Position numbers and translations under genes: made by a program. A stretch of DNA of 64,000 nucleotides from an uncultured virus (IMG/VR IMGVR_UViG_3300031787_008607) (lineage: Duplodnaviria; Heunggongvirae; Uroviricota; Caudoviricetes), in the IMG/VR virus record IMGVR_UViG_3300031787_008607, positions 62,001-126,000 of that record; one strand, 5' to 3'. The notes below the pieces were generated by a model. It was not told the DNA's origin and ran no database searches. It saw only the letters and a program-made list of their open reading frames with translations. How positions within the stretch are numbered: the first letter of the stretch is position 1; the number at the start of each line of letters is the position of its first letter. This document shows positions 947-62,303 of this stretch, in pieces.

Positions 947-1111
947 ATGAAAAACTTAAAACTAAAATTGACTTCAGCAATGTTCGCTCTTGTATTATCA
1001 GTTGTATTAATGGTTAGCTCACCATCATTACCTGTATTTGTTTTAAGTGTTGGTCTTATCCTATTACAGACAGCTTTGTGGGGTAAGTTGATGAAAGAGA
1101 TTAAAGAATAA
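947..1111 (+). CDS. small 2-TM membrane protein, 54 aa (not in ORF track)
   Basis: MKNLKLKLTSAMFALVLSVVLMVSSPSLPVFVLSVGLILLQTALWGKLMKEIKE; has its own promoter and terminator. Confidence 0.75.
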   Translation: MKNLKLKLTSAMFALVLSVVLMVSSPSLPVFVLSVGLILLQTALWGKLMKEIKE

Positions 1112-1137
1112 AAAAATCCCCTCTAATGAGGGGATTT
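1110..1137. terminator. bidirectional intrinsic terminator
   Basis: aaatcccctc-taat-gaggggattt between convergent genes. Confidence 0.8.
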
Positions 1138-1142
1138 ATGGT

Positions 1143-1967
1143 TTATACTGTTACTTCTTGTTGTAGTAGTTCGTAAGCTCTTGCTAAACGGGTCATCCCA
1201 ATCCCACCACCAAATCTTGGGAAGAAATCATGAGATAAGAATTCTTCTAATTCCTTCTCAACTCTTTCTTTTCCGAATAGTTCAAAAAGTTTTTCAGAAT
1301 ATTTTCCATTTTCTATTGTGTAGAAGTTATTTTTCATTTCTTCTACGTTAGAACTTCTTTCTGCGGAACCAATTGTTTCTTGTCCGTAAAGAATTACATC
1401 AACTTTGTTGAATATTTTGTTTTCACTTTCTCTCATGTTCCAAAATGGGTTTGTTCTGTATGGGAAATTTTGAAGTGAGACGACTGAACCTTTTTCTTCC
1501 CACATTCTTGTTTCGTGTTCGTTTTCTAAAATTGAAACTCCACCGTACTCTTCACATACATCATCGTAGTTAACTTCTACAGGTGAATCAAAACCTAAAT
1601 AATCTAAAAGTTCAGATTCAAGTTTTAACATTTCTTTCATTCCACCTTTTGATTCGAATTCAAACATTGGAAAAATCATTTCGTGACGACCTGGAATTGG
1701 GTCTTTTTCTTGTCTATAAGACGTTGAAATACAATAGACACCGTTCCATTCAGGATTCTTAAGAAGTTCGTATTCTAACCACATTTGACCCGTCTGTGGT
1801 AGTGGCCATACTTCTCCTTGATAATTGAATGTTGTTATTGAGTGTGGATTTTCACACGCCGCCAAGATTGATAATCTTGATTGAGTTGGAACTTCTTTAA
1901 AACCTTTGTTTTGGAAGAATGTTCTCATCTTTTGAACTAACTCGTTGTAAGTTTCTGTGTTTTTCAT
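1143..1967 (-). CDS. class II aaRS (Asn/Asp) catalytic-domain paralogue lacking the anticodon-binding domain; probable AsnRS-related asparagine synthetase
   Basis: 274 aa; motif 1 MRTFFQNKGFKEV, LPQTGQMWLE (cf. AsnRS LTQSGQLYLE), motif 2 SYRQE..GRH..F...EFE, motif 3 GGGIGMTRL; no N-terminal OB fold; Asn-rich leader upstream. Confidence 0.75.
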   Translation of the reverse strand: MKNTETYNELVQKMRTFFQNKGFKEVPTQSRLSILAACENPHSITTFNYQGEVWPLPQTGQMWLEYELLKNPEWNGVYCISTSYRQEKDPIPGRHEMIFPMFEFESKGGMKEMLKLESELLDYLGFDSPVEVNYDDVCEEYGGVSILENEHETRMWEEKGSVVSLQNFPYRTNPFWNMRESENKIFNKVDVILYGQETIGSAERSSNVEEMKNNFYTIENGKYSEKLFELFGKERVEKELEEFLSHDFFPRFGGGIGMTRLARAYELLQQEVTV

Positions 1968-2002
1968 TTTTTGTTTTTTTTTATTTTATTTATTAAAAGG
2001 GC

Positions 2003-2031
2003 AAAAAAAATCCTGACAAATGTCAGGATTT
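2003..2031 (-). terminator. intrinsic terminator in the 5' leader of 1143..1967 (attenuator)
   Basis: minus strand AAATCCTGAC-ATTT-GTCAGGA-T8, ending 35 nt before the ATG; no upstream co-directional gene to terminate. Confidence 0.8.
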
Positions 2032-2091
2032 CTTAAAAATATTATTGTTGTTTAAATTTCGTAGTTTTCTTTTAACTTTTTTTGTTACCAT
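2023..2091 (-). CDS. Asn-rich leader peptide MVTKKVKRKLRNLNNNNIFKKS (22 aa)
   Basis: ATG 2091; codons AAT TTA AAC AAC AAT AAT at positions 12-17; TGA inside the 5' arm of the terminator. Confidence 0.7.
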   Translation of the reverse strand: MVTKKVKRKLRNLNNNNIFKKS

Positions 2092-2164
2092 TAAAATTAA
2101 ATATATGCGTTTTATTAAAAATAATCAACATTAACAAAATATTTATTAAAAAGTATTTATCAGT

Positions 2165-3952
2165 ATGAGGAATTTATTAACTGAAGTTAGTAAGATGAAA
2201 AACATAATGGGTTTGACAGAAGCTGACAAACCAAAGTATAGCCCTGAGGTTAAATCTCTTGTTGCGGTTTTAAAAGATAACAAAGTATATAGTGCTCAAA
2301 TTCAAAAATTCATTAATAAGATTGAAGAATATTCAAAAGATGGCTTAGTTGATTTTGGATTAGTTACAAGAGGTATTTTAAAAACTTTAAAATTAAAAGG
2401 TAGTAAAGACATTAATATTTTTGAATTTTTCAAACAACTAACTAAATCATTAGAAAAAAGAAAAACTAAAAAAGAAGTTGTTAGTCCTGAAGAAGAGCCA
2501 TCAATATTAGATAAGGACATTTATAAGAAAGAATTATTTTTCCTTCAGGTTGAATTATTAAAACTACAGGAATGGTTAAAACAAACAGGTAAAACTGTTA
2601 TTATTGTTTTTGAAGGAAGAGATTCTGCAGGTAAAGGTTCAACAATTAAAAAGTTTACTGAAAACTTAAATCCAAGATATTATAAAGTTATTGCTCTTGG
2701 TATTCCTACACCCGATGAAAGAAAGAACTGGTGGGATAGATACAGAAATCAAATTGAGAAAGGTAAGATAAACTTCTTTGATAGAAGTTGGTATAATAGA
2801 GGTTTAGTGGAACCTGTTATGGGTTATGGTTCTTCAGATGAATATGAAGACTTTATGGATAATGTTCAGGACTTTGAGGAGTCATTAGTTATTGACGGTG
2901 ATTATCTATTCAAACTTTGGTTCTCAATAGATAAAGAAACTCAGGCTAAAAGATTTGATTTTAGACAAAAGTCACCATTGAAATATTGGAAGTATTCTGA
3001 GAATGATGAAAAAATGCAAGATGTGTGGGAAAAGTTTACAGAGTATAAACAAAAACTTTTTGATAAAACATCCACTGTAAACCATCCTTGGGTTGTTTTG
3101 GATTCTAACGATAAAAAGATTTCAGGTTTAAATTCAATTAGATATGTTTTACAGAATATTCCTTATACAAATAAAGATGAGGATGTTTTAAATAAGGATT
3201 TTCCTGAAGCAATGACTGTGTTAAAACCAAATATTAATGAGCAATCAGTTTTTGATGACATTAATAAAACTATGGGTTTTAACCAATCAAATAAAGAACC
3301 AAATTTTATGGATAAATGGTCTTCTATGGGTCAACCAAAAGACCAAATGAAACCAGATTCGGGAGGTGTTGTTAGTGATATAAATAAAACAATTAAATCC
3401 GGTCTTCAAAAAGCCTCAAGTGAAATATCTAAAAAAAATGAGAAAACCAATCAAAAACCTACAGGTGTTTCAGATAATCTTGTAAATTTTGTTGGTAATA
3501 TTGAGTTTTTTGTTCCTTGTGTTTATGATGATGCTAAAGGTGGTAAATGTATTAGAGGAGAATCTGATTGTTGTTTAAAAGGTAGAGTTCCATCTGGAAC
3601 CCCGACAATTGGTTATGGTACGGTTTATTACCCTGATGGTAGAAAAGTATCACCTAAAGACCCATCAATAACAAAAGATATTGCTAAAACGTATTTAAAA
3701 ACTGCTTTAAATAAATTGGCAGGTAAGTTATTAGCAATATATCCTAATTTAAATCAAAAACAAGTTGATGCATTATCATCATTATGTTATCAAGTTGGAT
3801 TTGCGGGTTGTACAACAAAGGCCCCAAAATTAAGTACTTCTTTAAAAATGAATCCAAATTCTAATTCAGTTAAAATTAACTTTTTAGATTTTAGTCATAG
3901 AGACCGAAGAGAAAAAGAATGGAAAATTTATAGTCAAGGAATTTATTCTTAA
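2165..3952 (+). CDS. ppk2: polyphosphate kinase 2 fused to a C-terminal GH24-like lysozyme domain
   Basis: PPK2 motifs FEGRDSAGKG, FDRSWYNR, SPLKYWKYS; C-terminal E..YDD...GTPTIGYG, LNQKQVDALSS, RREKE typical of phage lysozyme. Confidence 0.85.
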   Translation: MRNLLTEVSKMKNIMGLTEADKPKYSPEVKSLVAVLKDNKVYSAQIQKFINKIEEYSKDGLVDFGLVTRGILKTLKLKGSKDINIFEFFKQLTKSLEKRKTKKEVVSPEEEPSILDKDIYKKELFFLQVELLKLQEWLKQTGKTVIIVFEGRDSAGKGSTIKKFTENLNPRYYKVIALGIPTPDERKNWWDRYRNQIEKGKINFFDRSWYNRGLVEPVMGYGSSDEYEDFMDNVQDFEESLVIDGDYLFKLWFSIDKETQAKRFDFRQKSPLKYWKYSENDEKMQDVWEKFTEYKQKLFDKTSTVNHPWVVLDSNDKKISGLNSIRYVLQNIPYTNKDEDVLNKDFPEAMTVLKPNINEQSVFDDINKTMGFNQSNKEPNFMDKWSSMGQPKDQMKPDSGGVVSDINKTIKSGLQKASSEISKKNEKTNQKPTGVSDNLVNFVGNIEFFVPCVYDDAKGGKCIRGESDCCLKGRVPSGTPTIGYGTVYYPDGRKVSPKDPSITKDIAKTYLKTALNKLAGKLLAIYPNLNQKQVDALSSLCYQVGFAGCTTKAPKLSTSLKMNPNSNSVKINFLDFSHRDRREKEWKIYSQGIYS

Positions 3953-11690: not shown

Positions 11691-11923
11691 AGTAAAAACA
11701 AAGGATTTCTTTCACCGAAATGTCCACCAACAATATTGTAGTAATAATATTCTAAAGCATCTTCATAAGACATATCTTTTTGTAATGACTCAAGTATTTT
11801 ATCACGTGAATAAAGTATTCTTACTCCATTACCAAACTCTTCAACAATTCCTGTAATACAATCATCAAATCCGTCTAATAGAATTGCTCCTTCGGCTAAT
11901 TCTTCTACTTCTTCTTTTGTCAT
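11687..11923 (-). CDS. conserved phage hypothetical protein
   Basis: DGFDDCITG..YSRDKI..DALEYYYYNI.G. Confidence 0.7.
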   Translation of the reverse strand: MTKEEVEELAEGAILLDGFDDCITGIVEEFGNGVRILYSRDKILESLQKDMSYEDALEYYYYNIVGGHFGERNPLFLL

Positions 11924-12429
11924 TTGTTTTTATATTGTTCTAATGTGATTCCTTCGGTGTCTTTATCACTAATTCTAACTTTAAAGTTAAAACCTCTCAT
12001 GTATTTGGTAATAATATCTTTTACTTCTTCTACGGTGTCCCATTGAATACATCCTTCGTGTTCTTTAGAATAATCATTATCTACTAAGTAGTTAACAACT
12101 GTTCCACTTTGAAGTGTCAAAAATCCGTGAGCGTAACCTTTTGGAATATATACCGATTCACCTGAGGTTAAAACAAATGTTTCAAGTTTACCAAAGTCCT
12201 CACTTTCTTTATCCAAGTTAACAACAAAATCAATTATTTTTCCTTGGATAACCGATAAAAGTTTTGTTTGAGCCATTGGTTCATCTTGATAGTGTAGCCC
12301 ACGAAAGACAAATATATCGTCGTTTATACTAATGTTTGATTGAACCTACTTGTCAGAAAGTTTAATTGGGGTAAAAGACCCACGATGGTCTTTAAAAACT
12401 GGTTGTAATAGTTGATAAGGTTTTTCCAT
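11920..12429 (-). pseudogene. rmlC: dTDP-4-dehydrorhamnose 3,5-epimerase interrupted by an in-frame TAG
   Basis: MEKPYQLLQPVFKDHRGSF...DK*VQSNIS..VFRGLHYQ..AQTKL..IPKGYAHGF; TAG at 12348-12346. Confidence 0.8.
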
Positions 12430-22401: not shown

Positions 22402-22796
22402 TGGTGGAGATGCGGGGGTTCGAACCCCGGTCCAAATATGTCGACCATAAAACACTACACGTTTAGGTCATTGTTTTTCTAAACAATCCGAAACTTCACA
22501 ATTCCCTTATTTTATAGTGGTTCGGTTTACTGAGAACTAATCCTCCACTTTGTTTCTTTTCGGATAGAAACCACACCACAGTACAAGCTTCTGTTGCAAG
22601 GTTATATGCTCACCGACCCCGTTGTATACTAATCTTAGATTAGGCTACAGTTACTTCTTCAGTACGGATTAAACCGAGTGTAGAAAGTTTTGCAATTGTG
22701 TTGCCGTTTGTGTTTTAAACCAGTTTTACAGGGTTAGTTTAGCCCCGACGTGCGTTTTATGACAGATTCATACCTGTCAAATCCAAAAACATCCCC
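22402..22796 (-). ncRNA. ssrA: tmRNA (395 nt), tag peptide GNTIAKLSTLGLIRTEEVTVA
   Basis: 5' GGGGATGTTTTTGGATTTGAC; 3' CCGGGGTTCGAACCCCCGCATCTCCACCA; acceptor stem with G3:U70-type pair; tag ORF 22705-22640. Confidence 0.92.
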
Positions 22797-24801: not shown

Positions 24802-24829
24802 AAAAAAAGGGGGTTTATTCCCCCTTTTT
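24802..24829. terminator. bidirectional terminator
   Basis: aaaaaggggg-tttatt-cccccttttt between convergent genes. Confidence 0.8.
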
Positions 24830-26878
24830 CTTTCTTGGTCTTTTCACTTTTGGTGTTTCATCAGGTTGGACTTCAACTTCTGTTATTGAAACCTCTTCTT
24901 CATTGATTTCGATATTATAAGTCTTACCTAATACAATTTTTTCACGTAATACTTCATCTGAAATGTAGTCTTCAATCTTTTCTTGGATTGCTCTCTTTAG
25001 AGGACGTGCTCCGTAAACATCATCAAATCCTACTTTTGAAACAAAGTCAATTACTGATTGACCAAAATTAATGTTGTAACCCAAGTTTAATAGACGAGTT
25101 TTTAGTTTGTTAATTTCAACCAAAACAATCTTTTGGATATCGTCATTTTGAAGTGTGTTGAATACAATTACTTCATCCAAACGATTGATGAACTCAGGTG
25201 CGAAGTGATTCTTCAATTCTTTATTCAACATCGTTTTCTTAAGTTCTTCATTGGTGTAAACATTACCTGTCTTACTAAATCCAACACCTGCACCAAACTC
25301 TTGCATCTTTTTCACCCCAAGATTTGAAGTCATGATGATTAAACAGTTTTTGAAATTGATTTTTCTTCCAAAACTATCCGTCATGTAACCTTCGTCTAAT
25401 AGTTGAAGTAATGCTGAGAAGATATCTTTGTGGGCTTTCTCAACCTCGTCAAATAATACTACAGAATATGGTTTGGTTTTTACTTGTTCTGTAAGTTGTC
25501 CACCTTCATCATATCCAACATAACCAGGAGGTGAACCAATCAAACGAGATACGGTATGTTTTTCTTGGAATTCAGACATATCAACTCGGATAAGGTTTTC
25601 CTCACTTCCAAAAATTTGTTTAGCCAATTCTTTAGCCAACAATGTCTTACCAACACCTGTTGAACCTAAGAATATAAATGAACCAATTGGTTTATTTGGG
25701 TCTTTGATACCTAATCTATTTCTACGAATAGATTTTGCAATTTTAGTAACAGCATCTTTTTGTCCAACTACTGATTTGTTTAACTCTTCTTCTAAATTAA
25801 TAAGAGCAACTTTATCATCTAAATTAAGTTTAGTTAAAGGTATTTTTGTCATTGTTGACACTACCTCATAAACCAATTCTTCAGAAATTGTTTTTCTATT
25901 ATCTAAAAGAGTTTGTTCAAACTTTTTCTTTTCAATATCGAGTTGTGATAAAACTTTCTTTTCTTTATCTCTTAAGTTTGCGGCTTCTTCGTAATTCTGT
26001 TTTTTAACAACAAGTAATTTTTGTTGTTTAATTTCTAATGCCTGACGTTTTAATTCATCAATAATTTCAGGATTTTTCACATCTACCTGAGCTCTTGCTC
26101 CAACCTCATCCAAGATGTCAAACGCTTTATCAGGGAACTCTCTGTCTGTGATATATCGTTCCGCCAAATCAACACAGATTTGTAAAATTTCATCAGTGTA
26201 ATTTACCTTGTGATAATTTTCATATCTGTCTTTAACATTCTTAAGGATTTGTAATGTTTCTTCTTTGGTTGAAGAACTAACTATTACTTTTTGGAAACGT
26301 CTATCTAACGCTCCGTCCTTTTCAATTTGTTTCTTGTACTCATCCAATGTTGTTGCTCCAATACATTGTATTTCACCTCTTGATAATGCAGGTTTTAGAA
26401 TGTTAGATGCATCCATTGAACCTGATGCGTTACCCGCTCCTACAATAGTATGGATTTCATCAATGAATAGAATAACATTAGGGTTTGCCTGAATTTCTTC
26501 CAAGATAACCTTTAATCGTTCTTCAAATTGACCACGATACTTTGTTCCGGCAATTACCGAATTCATCTCTAATGATAAAATACGTTTATCAATTAGGTTT
26601 CTTGGACAATCACCTTCAAAAATCTTCATAGCCAACCCCTCAACAATTGCGGTCTTACCACAACCAGGTTCACCAATAATAATTGGGTTATTTTTCTTTC
26701 TTCTTGAAAGAATTTGTGCAATTCGTAATATTTCGTTTTCCCTACCTACAACTGGGTCTAATTTACCTTCCTCGGCAAGTTTAATAAGGTCACGACTAAA
26801 ATTGTCTAGAACAGGTGTACTTGAGTTTACCTCTGTCTTTTTTGGTAGTTTTCCACCTTCATCAACTGAATCTGTCAT
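24815..26878 (-). CDS. clpC: ClpC-type AAA+ ATPase lacking the N-terminal repeat domain
   Basis: two AAA modules (GEPGCGKT, GSTGVGKT), UVR-like QNYEEAANLRD, VGF ClpP-docking loop, GARPLKR. Confidence 0.9.
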   Translation of the reverse strand: MTDSVDEGGKLPKKTEVNSSTPVLDNFSRDLIKLAEEGKLDPVVGRENEILRIAQILSRRKKNNPIIIGEPGCGKTAIVEGLAMKIFEGDCPRNLIDKRILSLEMNSVIAGTKYRGQFEERLKVILEEIQANPNVILFIDEIHTIVGAGNASGSMDASNILKPALSRGEIQCIGATTLDEYKKQIEKDGALDRRFQKVIVSSSTKEETLQILKNVKDRYENYHKVNYTDEILQICVDLAERYITDREFPDKAFDILDEVGARAQVDVKNPEIIDELKRQALEIKQQKLLVVKKQNYEEAANLRDKEKKVLSQLDIEKKKFEQTLLDNRKTISEELVYEVVSTMTKIPLTKLNLDDKVALINLEEELNKSVVGQKDAVTKIAKSIRRNRLGIKDPNKPIGSFIFLGSTGVGKTLLAKELAKQIFGSEENLIRVDMSEFQEKHTVSRLIGSPPGYVGYDEGGQLTEQVKTKPYSVVLFDEVEKAHKDIFSALLQLLDEGYMTDSFGRKINFKNCLIIMTSNLGVKKMQEFGAGVGFSKTGNVYTNEELKKTMLNKELKNHFAPEFINRLDEVIVFNTLQNDDIQKIVLVEINKLKTRLLNLGYNINFGQSVIDFVSKVGFDDVYGARPLKRAIQEKIEDYISDEVLREKIVLGKTYNIEINEEEVSITEVEVQPDETPKVKRPRKKKGE

Positions 26879-61896: not shown

Positions 61897-62303
61897 ATAA
61901 AAGTTTTATCAATTGTTTGACCAAAATATGGCCCTGTTTTGTATTCATATACAATAGTATCGTCTTCTAAAATCAAATAATTATGACCACCATTAAATGT
62001 AAAACTAATATCACCTGCGGATAATATAGGTTCCGCAATTATATTATCATCAATGTCATAGAAAATACATTTTACCTTTCCTTTTATAACACACCAACTT
62101 TCCTGAGGTATGTAATTTTCATCATGTCTTGGGATTATATTATGTTTGTGAGGTTTAAATGTATGTCCTTTAGATAATTTTAAACTGGCACATTGAAGGT
62201 AGTTTTTATCTAAGCTTAAATCAGTTCGTTCAGAAGTAACATCAGATAATCTCACAATTTGATGAAGGAGTTCTCCATTAATTTTAGAATATATTTTTTC
62301 CAT
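61893..62303 (-). CDS. cupin-fold (WbuC-like) protein
   Basis: FKPHKH, QESW, GGHNY, EYKTGPY. Confidence 0.75.
   Translation of the reverse strand: MEKIYSKINGELLHQIVRLSDVTSERTDLSLDKNYLQCASLKLSKGHTFKPHKHNIIPRHDENYIPQESWCVIKGKVKCIFYDIDDNIIAEPILSAGDISFTFNGGHNYLILEDDTIVYEYKTGPYFGQTIDKTFI

Follow-up and report, generated by a model that had tools for sequence, protein, structure and literature searches.

In the pyrBI and pyrE attenuators, pausing of RNA polymerase that is sensitive to UTP sets the coupling of the ribosome, while the pheST, trp and his attenuators and the T-boxes are induced by lack of the cognate charged tRNA. In mycobacteria, leaderless short open reading frames (ORFs) encoding polycysteine give amino-acid-responsive attenuation of the downstream gene by ribosome pausing, according to a preprint (Canestrari et al., 10.1101/834739). 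Li et al. (2015, PMC4824070) report that a terminator can fold when 10–15 nt of RNA lie free between the A site of the ribosome and the hairpin, and that placing the stop codon 5 instead of 28 bp before tR2 lowers termination from about 90% to less than 10%. In Elgamal et al. (PMC5021804), a stall site upstream of the pyrL terminator made expression 26-fold lower when stalling was allowed. Here we describe a leader in 64,000 nt of DNA from an uncultured virus of the Caudoviricetes, a large phage from a lake (IMG/VR record IMGVR_UViG_3300031787_008607, positions 62,001 to 126,000; this whole stretch is called the window), in which an Asn-rich ORF of 22 codons leads into an intrinsic terminator ahead of a gene for an aminoacyl-tRNA-synthetase-like protein. 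Quite possibly, though we hold this reading tentatively, the leader acts as a ribosome-coupling transcription attenuator of the pyrBI type, in which fast reading of the Asn codons would give read-through and stalling would give termination.

The leader and its gene in the window

The elements of the unit are as follows (positions are those of the window).

2100..2128, minus strand: promoter-like site found by promoter scan; TTGATT (2128-2123), 17-nt spacer, TATATT (2105-2100)
2023..2091, minus strand: leader ORF from the ORF listing, 22 codons plus stop, MVTKKVKRKLRNLNNNNIFKKS; ATG at 2091, TGA at 2025-2023
2003..2028, minus strand: intrinsic terminator; TCCTGAC (2028-2022), loop ATTT (2021-2018), GTCAGGA (2017-2011), U8 (2010-2003)
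1999..2002, minus strand: GCCC directly past the U-run, kept in relatives
1968..1998, minus strand: A-rich spacer between terminator and gene start, 31 nt, with no Shine-Dalgarno (SD) sequence
1143..1967, minus strand: the gene that the leader would regulate, for a 274-aa class IIb aminoacyl-tRNA-synthetase catalytic core of the AsnRS/AspRS type (Pfam tRNA-synt_2, 3.2e-13)
about 1107..1137, minus strand: terminator past the gene found by terminator scan, AAATCCCCTC ATTA GAGGGGATTT plus a T-run

The small ORF has its ATG 8 nt past the −10 hexamer TATATT. Asn is encoded at codons 12 and 14–17 of MVTKKVKRKLRNLNNNNIFKKS, five in all and four of them consecutive, and CGA (2061-2059), a rare codon for Arg, comes just before the first Asn codon (2058-2056), with the Asn run (2052-2041) further on. 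The TGA sits within the 5' arm of the 7-bp core stem, 12 nt separate the end of the last Asn codon from this stem, and the U-run ends 35 nt before the gene ATG (1967), GCCC included. A first-pass annotation of this DNA had described the ORF with its five Asn codons, the stop codon within a perfect hairpin followed by U8, the 35-nt distance and the spacing of the last Asn codon, and strand reading together with the ORF listing confirmed them, the spacing being measured on the core stem. The hairpin region folds with −16.1 kcal/mol, against −3.8 ± 1.9 for its shuffles (z −6.4; 0 of 200 shuffles equal); a simple terminator scan omitted this hairpin, though with its 4-nt loop the stated criteria of the scan are satisfied. 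TTTTTTGCCC occurs a single time within the window. The spacer at 1968..1998 is too short for a separate promoter, and the downstream terminator closes a one-gene unit.

The annotation had also raised a chance origin of the Asn run, and this was checked in the surrounding IMG/VR virus record (132.7 kb, 31% G+C). Among its 1899 ATG-ORFs of 8–30 codons, one has NNNN and 14 have at least five Asn, while the long ORFs contain 6.7% Asn and NNNN 0 times in 31,286 residues. The Asn run of the window is rarer than chance.

From the promoter geometry we infer that transcription starts at or near the leader ATG, which would make the small ORF a leaderless or almost leaderless one. Initiation of this kind is plausible in this record since SD-like motifs precede just 3 of 106 long ORFs (record G000) and since an RmlC-like gene of the same record starts 6 nt past the same kind of promoter, TTGATT-17-TATATT; that gene is probably leaderless itself. 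The scarce SD motifs and the A-rich start regions would fit a Bacteroidota-type host, which matches the guess of the annotation. The RmlC-like gene (11923-12429, minus strand) encodes a dTDP-4-dehydrorhamnose 3,5-epimerase-like protein (Pfam 1.2e-34 across the break) and holds a single in-frame TAG at 12348-12346, for which a broken gene, a sequencing error and read-through are all possible.

In the proposed mechanism, the promoter would give a transcript beginning at or a few bases from the AUG of the 22-codon ORF, and this ORF would lead the ribosome into the 5' arm of the terminator. Without an alternative fold, read-through would need a ribosome close behind RNA polymerase that covers the 5' arm while the U-run is synthesized. 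The Asn codons and the rare CGA-Asn pair would make the pace of the ribosome on the leader depend on charged tRNA-Asn. With ample Asn-tRNA the ribosome would keep pace and the gene would be transcribed, whereas with scarce Asn-tRNA it would stand 15–30 nt upstream, the hairpin would form and transcription would end. For an AsnRS-like core from a family tied to pyrimidine genes, the control would then be of the substrate or feed-forward type rather than relief of starvation.

Conservation of the leader and signs of its translation

As relatives, 589 confirmed IMG/VR stretches were obtained (the best 80 fetched per query), and the 79 loci with sufficient upstream DNA gave 67 distinct 250-nt upstream regions. 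In 58 of these 67, a perfect hairpin with a U-run lies no more than 60 nt from the gene start, and two more scans with edge members brought 30 new distinct upstream regions with the terminator in 17. The annotation had named as a check a conserved Asn-codon run plus terminator in related phages; the small ORF and the terminator are a conserved unit before the gene there. Among the 13 regions counted as terminator-less, L121 has an imperfect hairpin followed by U9-GCCC. The 77 terminator-bearing regions contain 26 different 5' arm sequences, and every one of them pairs perfectly with its 3' arm; such varied but paired stems are the pattern that would be expected under selection on an RNA hairpin. 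Loops and leaders have no sequence conservation across the relatives. The U-run is followed by GCCC in 53 and by ACCC in 7 of the 77 distinct regions; an explanation of the GCCC motif was sought and none was found. The spacers between terminator and gene measure 10–47 nt and are 70% A, and a hairpin plus T5 occurs within 80 nt past the gene stop in 30 of 63 distinct downstream regions. The promoter TTGAnn-N17-TATATT(TA) recurs upstream of the leader in relatives, most of which retain a −10 box that ends 6–12 nt ahead of the leader ATG. Of 60 distinct relatives with the terminator, 24 match the strict pattern TTG-N19-21-TAnnTT(T/A)N with an ATG behind it. At four loci (L027, L028, L030 and L236) there is no small ORF, and a full-length co-directional gene stops about 6–13 nt (by eye) before the same terminator.

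The distant homologues at about 50–55% identity (cyanophages, huge phages and P0002 relatives) and also some closer ones do not have the device. At the 7 loci of P0002 relatives the leader is absent and the genes lie within operons, overlapping upstream genes; the leader is likewise missing from the huge-phage records L084 and L085; for P0012 there was no confirmed locus. Since the P0002 relatives, L084 and L085 are without the leader, the device is, as far as these sequences go, clade-specific. A different, conserved leader was seen in terminator-less relatives, consisting of a hairpin, A10 and TTTC(T)NATG about 40 nt before the gene start (L024, L026, L130, L134, L168, L225 and L237; also L084, 1420-1456).

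For the analysis of the ORF, leaders were sorted by eye into 24, later 32, peptide types with one representative each; near-identical variants, the four regions with the terminator behind a full-length gene and the unclear L171 were omitted. A −10-like hexamer ends 3–14 nt before the leader ATG in 22 of the 24 types. In all 22 types having such a box the adjacent ATG opens a frame that reaches to within 12 nt of the stem, whereas dinucleotide shuffles predict 1.7, in a test that is partly circular because the box was picked relative to the ATG. The ORFs of the types that stop at the terminator have 8–26 codons. The codon CGA is distributed 20:2:2 among the frames over the 32 types (in-frame first). 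Its frequency is 39 per 1000 leader codons versus 2.6 per 1000 in long ORFs, where it makes up 7% of Arg codons. In examples read by eye the codon stands anywhere between about 7 and 31 nt from the ATG, and in 10 of 20 cases Asn comes next; the pair may be a deliberately slow one. The conserved ATG by the promoter, the open frame to the terminator and the in-frame CGA are signs from which we infer that the small ORF is translated.

Asn makes up 99 of 488 in-frame codons in the 32 types (20.3%), versus 7.9% and 5.3% in the other two frames; composition, with the frame kept open, predicts about 11%. Neighbouring Asn codons number 28 in 456 codon pairs versus about 6 expected, approximately five-fold, and Asn lies above the composition expectation in 25 of the 32 types. 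Asn is enriched in frame, but as a universal feature of the leaders the Asn run emphasized by the annotation finds no support, with tandem Asn in 14 of 32 types and no Asn in 2.

Pairing of the leader with the terminator 5' arm was better than that of its shuffles in 0 of 24 types (lowest fraction 0.15) and amounted to −0.3 to −5.6 kcal/mol, versus −9.7 to −14.8 for the terminators; the whole leader of the window is barely structured (z −1.5). There is no antiterminator fold in the leader, as the annotation had also noticed, and because this pairing is no better than in shuffles the leader falls outside the trp/his attenuator class. Rfam gave no family at the gathering score in the region. Sub-threshold Rfam matches to Phe, Trp and Leu leaders were rejected, since they lie on other terminator-like hairpins (879-975 and 1108-1218) and not on the leader.

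The stop codon lies in the core stem or at most 10 nt before it in 21 of 24 types and 11–12 nt before it in the other 3. The Asn codons of the window lie 15, 18, 21, 24 and 30 nt ahead of the core stem, and over the types they lie mostly 12–56 nt before it. Toward the stem the leaders are slightly richer in T (33% in the last 18 nt versus 22% earlier) and in T-runs of at least 3 (2.4 versus 1.2 per 100 nt); both signals are weak, and the runs are irregular. Internal −10-like hexamers were tried as a second promoter or sigma pause and were rejected, being present in 20 of 32 types versus 18.3 expected, with no overall enrichment; those located 9–14 nt before the stem are mildly clustered (9 types versus 3.8 expected).

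The enzyme family and its gene context

The AlphaFold2 (AF2) model of the 274-aa protein has a pLDDT (predicted local distance difference test) of 96.7. Its top Foldseek matches were the AsnRS structures 1x54, 8tc8 and 2xgt; E values were 1e-17 to 5e-15 across AsnRS, AspRS and AsnA-type structures, in the order AsnRS, AspRS and then archaeal asparagine synthetase A (AsnA). The family profile searched against PDB gave AsnRS at 1.3e-14, AspRS at 4.8e-13 and archaeal AsnA at 1.9e-6. The protein matched phrog_29758 at 7.5e-96, while NCBIfam matches were all far under the cut-off (PRK06462, 22.8 bits versus 322), and the family has 690 cluster representatives at E ≤ 0.001. The anticodon-binding N-terminal OB domain is missing, and the 274 aa align just to residues ~140–380 of AsnRS chains. 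Judged by the model and the profiles, the protein is the catalytic core of a class IIb synthetase in a separate family (phrog_29758), in agreement with the AsnRS-type core called by the annotation. The family motif Q..LE is like QLYLE of AsnRS and unlike QLYKQ of AspRS, at positions which we take to be specificity residues.

Two fusions were found among 12 long family representatives, P0005 (dihydroorotate dehydrogenase, DHO_dh, plus synthetase core) and P0031 (core plus OMPdecase). Five cellular loci were obtained, all in metagenome-assembled genomes of uncultured bacteria, one labelled Babeliaceae. The homologue adjoins genes for orotidine monophosphate (OMP) decarboxylase and a DHO_dh-phosphoribosyltransferase in L243 (6060-8391) and DHO_dh in L245 (5910-7637), and it lies about 1.3 kb from CTP synthase in L244 (7129-8730); L242 has a PurF-like gene and L241 nothing related. 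Two Prochlorococcus phages, P-SSM7 and P-SSM2, and one IMG/VR contig carry a tRNA of 85–88 nt with anticodon GUU within about 10–13 nt past the homologue.

2278-2364 of L082: long tRNA(GUU), P-SSM7
2304-2391 of L083: long tRNA(GUU), P-SSM2
1558-1642 of L095: long tRNA(GUU), IMG/VR contig

These tRNAs are far longer than a normal tRNA-Asn; a near-identical phage record (G001) carries an ordinary 73-nt tRNA-Asn in a 14-tRNA array. ARAGORN found no tRNA beside the gene at 43 IMG/VR loci, except the tRNA(GUU) just downstream in L095. In L068, tRNA-Met and tRNA-Arg lie about 1 kb upstream of the gene.

The identity of an asparagine synthetase, suggested by the annotation, finds no support, since the family scores weaker against archaeal AsnA than against AsnRS and AspRS and since its context is pyrimidine genes (with DHO_dh and OMPdecase fusions) or tRNA(GUU), not asparagine synthesis. 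The enzyme may use asparagine or Asn-tRNA, perhaps feeding pyrimidine synthesis, a role that would suit the gene context as well as the sign predicted for the switch. A more specific proposal, which as a whole we regard as speculative and rather improbable, is that the enzyme is a new entry to pyrimidine synthesis from asparagine, gated by a leaderless Asn/CGA ORF that gauges Asn supply via ribosome speed. It would then be made only when its substrate is plentiful and would boost nucleotides for an AT-rich genome, and the cyanophage members would work with a private long-arm tRNA(GUU). By atom count, asparagine plus CO2 minus water would equal dihydroorotate.

Competing explanations and comparison with known systems

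Under ribosome coupling the gene would most likely be on with plentiful Asn-tRNA and off when it is scarce, because ribosomes near a terminator suppress it and upstream stalls raise termination, as reported in PMC4824070 and PMC5021804. Several points weigh against this reading. Asn codons abut the stem (at most 10 nt upstream) in 5 of 24 types, where a stalled ribosome could block the stem with the opposite sign. A leader of 30–65 nt gives very little time for a ribosome to load and catch up, and no pause signal has been demonstrated. Tandem Asn occurs in just 14 of 32 types, and 2 of 32 have no Asn, their ORF running through the terminator. The leader types were chosen by eye and share ancestry, hence p-values overstate their independence. 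The pyrimidine link comes from cellular relatives that are just ~50–60% identical to each other and to the window protein; the phage records are mostly without pyrimidine genes (DHO_dh/pyrD 0 of 4, OMPdecase/pyrF 1 of 4), and the cyanophage homologue is paired with tRNA(GUU) instead. The RNA runs found hold, in small shares, contigs of relatives only: those over parts of 1142-2273 are fragments 90–99% alike (four runs), with no information on start, end or strand.

The leader may instead be a translation-coupled attenuator whose signal is not asparagine, sensing the overall capacity for translation or, by pausing of RNA polymerase as in pyrBI, a nucleotide pool, with Asn codons coming largely from an A-rich unstructured leader. 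Universal among the leaders are an ORF that ends at the terminator and an unstructured RNA, and 18 of 32 types are without tandem Asn. The leaders are 51% A, and Lys is nearly as frequent in frame as Asn (18% versus 20%). The family, like the pyrBI and pyrE attenuators, has ties to pyrimidine genes, and the rise of T before the stem points the same way, but U-runs there are weak and irregular. Against this explanation stand also an Asn content about two-fold over both expectation and the other frames, the roughly five-fold excess of Asn-Asn, the 25 of 32 types above expectation and the recurrence of in-frame CGA-Asn (10 of 20). We consider a signal other than asparagine unlikely.

In the model of the first-pass annotation, a ribosome stalled on the Asn run may block the hairpin directly, and the gene would be switched on at low charged tRNA-Asn, with the enzyme supplying asparagine or Asn-tRNA. 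This direction has a general precedent, since shortage of a cognate charged tRNA usually induces synthetase and amino-acid synthesis genes. The protein is closest to AsnRS and shares its Q..LE-type motif, and tRNA(GUU) stands behind the cyanophage homologues. An Asn codon lies 2–5 nt before the core stem in L014, L020, L029, L037 and L065, and the last Asn codon lies 12–15 nt before it in 8 types. These abutting types (5 of 24) and the cluster at 12–15 nt keep the direct block as a minority reading. In the window, however, the Asn codons are 15 and 18–30 nt from the core stem, and PMC4824070 has 10–15 nt of free RNA as sufficient for a hairpin. In 19 of 24 types the 10 nt upstream of the stem hold no Asn codon, and the earliest stall would occur at upstream Asn or CGA-Asn codons, 22–56 nt away; in experiments, termination increased when ribosomes stalled ahead of the terminator (PMC5021804). 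A ribosome stalled on Asn would reach the stem in 5 of 24 types and not in the window, whereas one at the ORF end would reach it in 21 of 24. The weaker AsnA match (1.9e-6 versus 1.3e-14 for AsnRS) and the pyrimidine fusions also speak against a supply of asparagine. We doubt that the gene is switched on by scarce asparagine and regard it as improbable.

The remaining explanation makes translation of the small ORF irrelevant and takes the unit as a terminator close to its promoter that an antitermination factor of phage or host overcomes, or as a small RNA gene with a leaky terminator. A promoter, a short transcript and a strong terminator form the layout of factor-dependent antitermination, as at lambda PR'-tR', the ribosome model offers no explanation for the GCCC or ACCC after the U-run (60 of 77), which could be a signal to a protein or to the polymerase, and the −10-like hexamers 9–14 nt before the stem (9 versus 3.8) are placed as for a sigma-dependent pause. 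We find this quite unlikely, because the unit governs one gene and not a late operon, the unconserved loops and leaders offer no obvious protein or RNA binding site, the ATG, the open frame, the CGA split of 20:2:2 and the Asn signals need translation, and the hexamers are not enriched overall (20 versus 18.3), with no Rfam family at the gathering score.

Outside the unit, the window encodes terminase, portal and major head proteins. The gene next upstream of the leader is divergent, as the annotation stated, and bounds the device.

2165..3952, plus strand: divergent neighbour outside the device, a PPK2 and phage-lysozyme fusion (Pfam PPK2 1.7e-70, Phage_lysozyme 7e-10)

This ORF has 595 aa, with the polyphosphate kinase 2 domain at residues 115–338 and the lysozyme domain at 476–549. 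A phage transfer-messenger RNA (tmRNA) is located at 22402-22796 (minus strand; Rfam 133.5 bits, tag AKLSTLGLIRTEEVTVA), and a ClpB-like double AAA+ protein is encoded at 24815-26878 (minus strand), about 2 kb from it.

In conclusion, if the coupling model for the Asn-rich leader is true, this would be a transcription attenuator in a phage that is read by an amino acid, works without an antiterminator and switches its gene on with that amino acid in ample supply. The effect of a ribosome near a terminator, so far shown mostly with engineered reporters, would here have a natural use. A promoter, an ORF of 8–26 codons and a hairpin would make a compact, portable sensor, and the leader highlights a widespread phage enzyme family linked to pyrimidine genes and an odd tRNA(GUU). 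Among open-access papers and bioRxiv preprints, considered mostly at the level of listings, neither an amino-acid attenuator in a phage nor a description of the enzyme family was found.

The enzyme has the same fold as AsnRS, AspRS and archaeal asparagine synthetase A (1x54, 2xgt, 3nel, 3p8t/3rex) and is core-only as the archaeal enzyme is; unlike the latter, it has a context of pyrimidine genes or a private tRNA(GUU), and its family profile matches the archaeal enzyme more weakly than AsnRS. As in the trp, his, leu, thr, pheA and pheST leaders, a short ORF rich in the codons of one amino acid and a terminator precede a gene of a related synthetase family. Unlike these classical leader-peptide attenuators, the phage leader has neither an antiterminator nor a 1:2 pause hairpin, and its Asn codons are mostly too distant from the stem for occlusion, which gives the opposite predicted sign. 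With the mycobacterial polycysteine ORFs it shares a short ORF, here putatively leaderless, with a codon tract for one amino acid; there, the control is translational, the ribosome-binding site being hidden in a structure that stalled ribosomes open, and the gene is on in starvation, whereas the target in the phage would be a transcription terminator, with no such structure (10.1101/834739). The stop codon a few bases before the terminator in 21 of 24 types is like the last-ribosome repression of terminators in Li et al. (2015, PMC4824070), whose system is an engineered Escherichia coli reporter and not a natural leader.

The closest likeness is to pyrBI (pyrL) and pyrE of E. coli. Unlike these, the phage leader is marked by Asn and CGA codons and has no clear U-rich pause tracts, and its ORF, apparently leaderless, has 8–26 codons in the types that stop at the terminator, with the stop codon usually inside the 5' arm or shortly ahead of it. 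Pyrimidine-synthesis genes are controlled there, and a family linked to them would be controlled here. In both, the leader ORF extends to or through an intrinsic terminator with no antiterminator fold, and read-through in the phage would be given, as in pyrBI and pyrE, by the ribosome trailing the polymerase.

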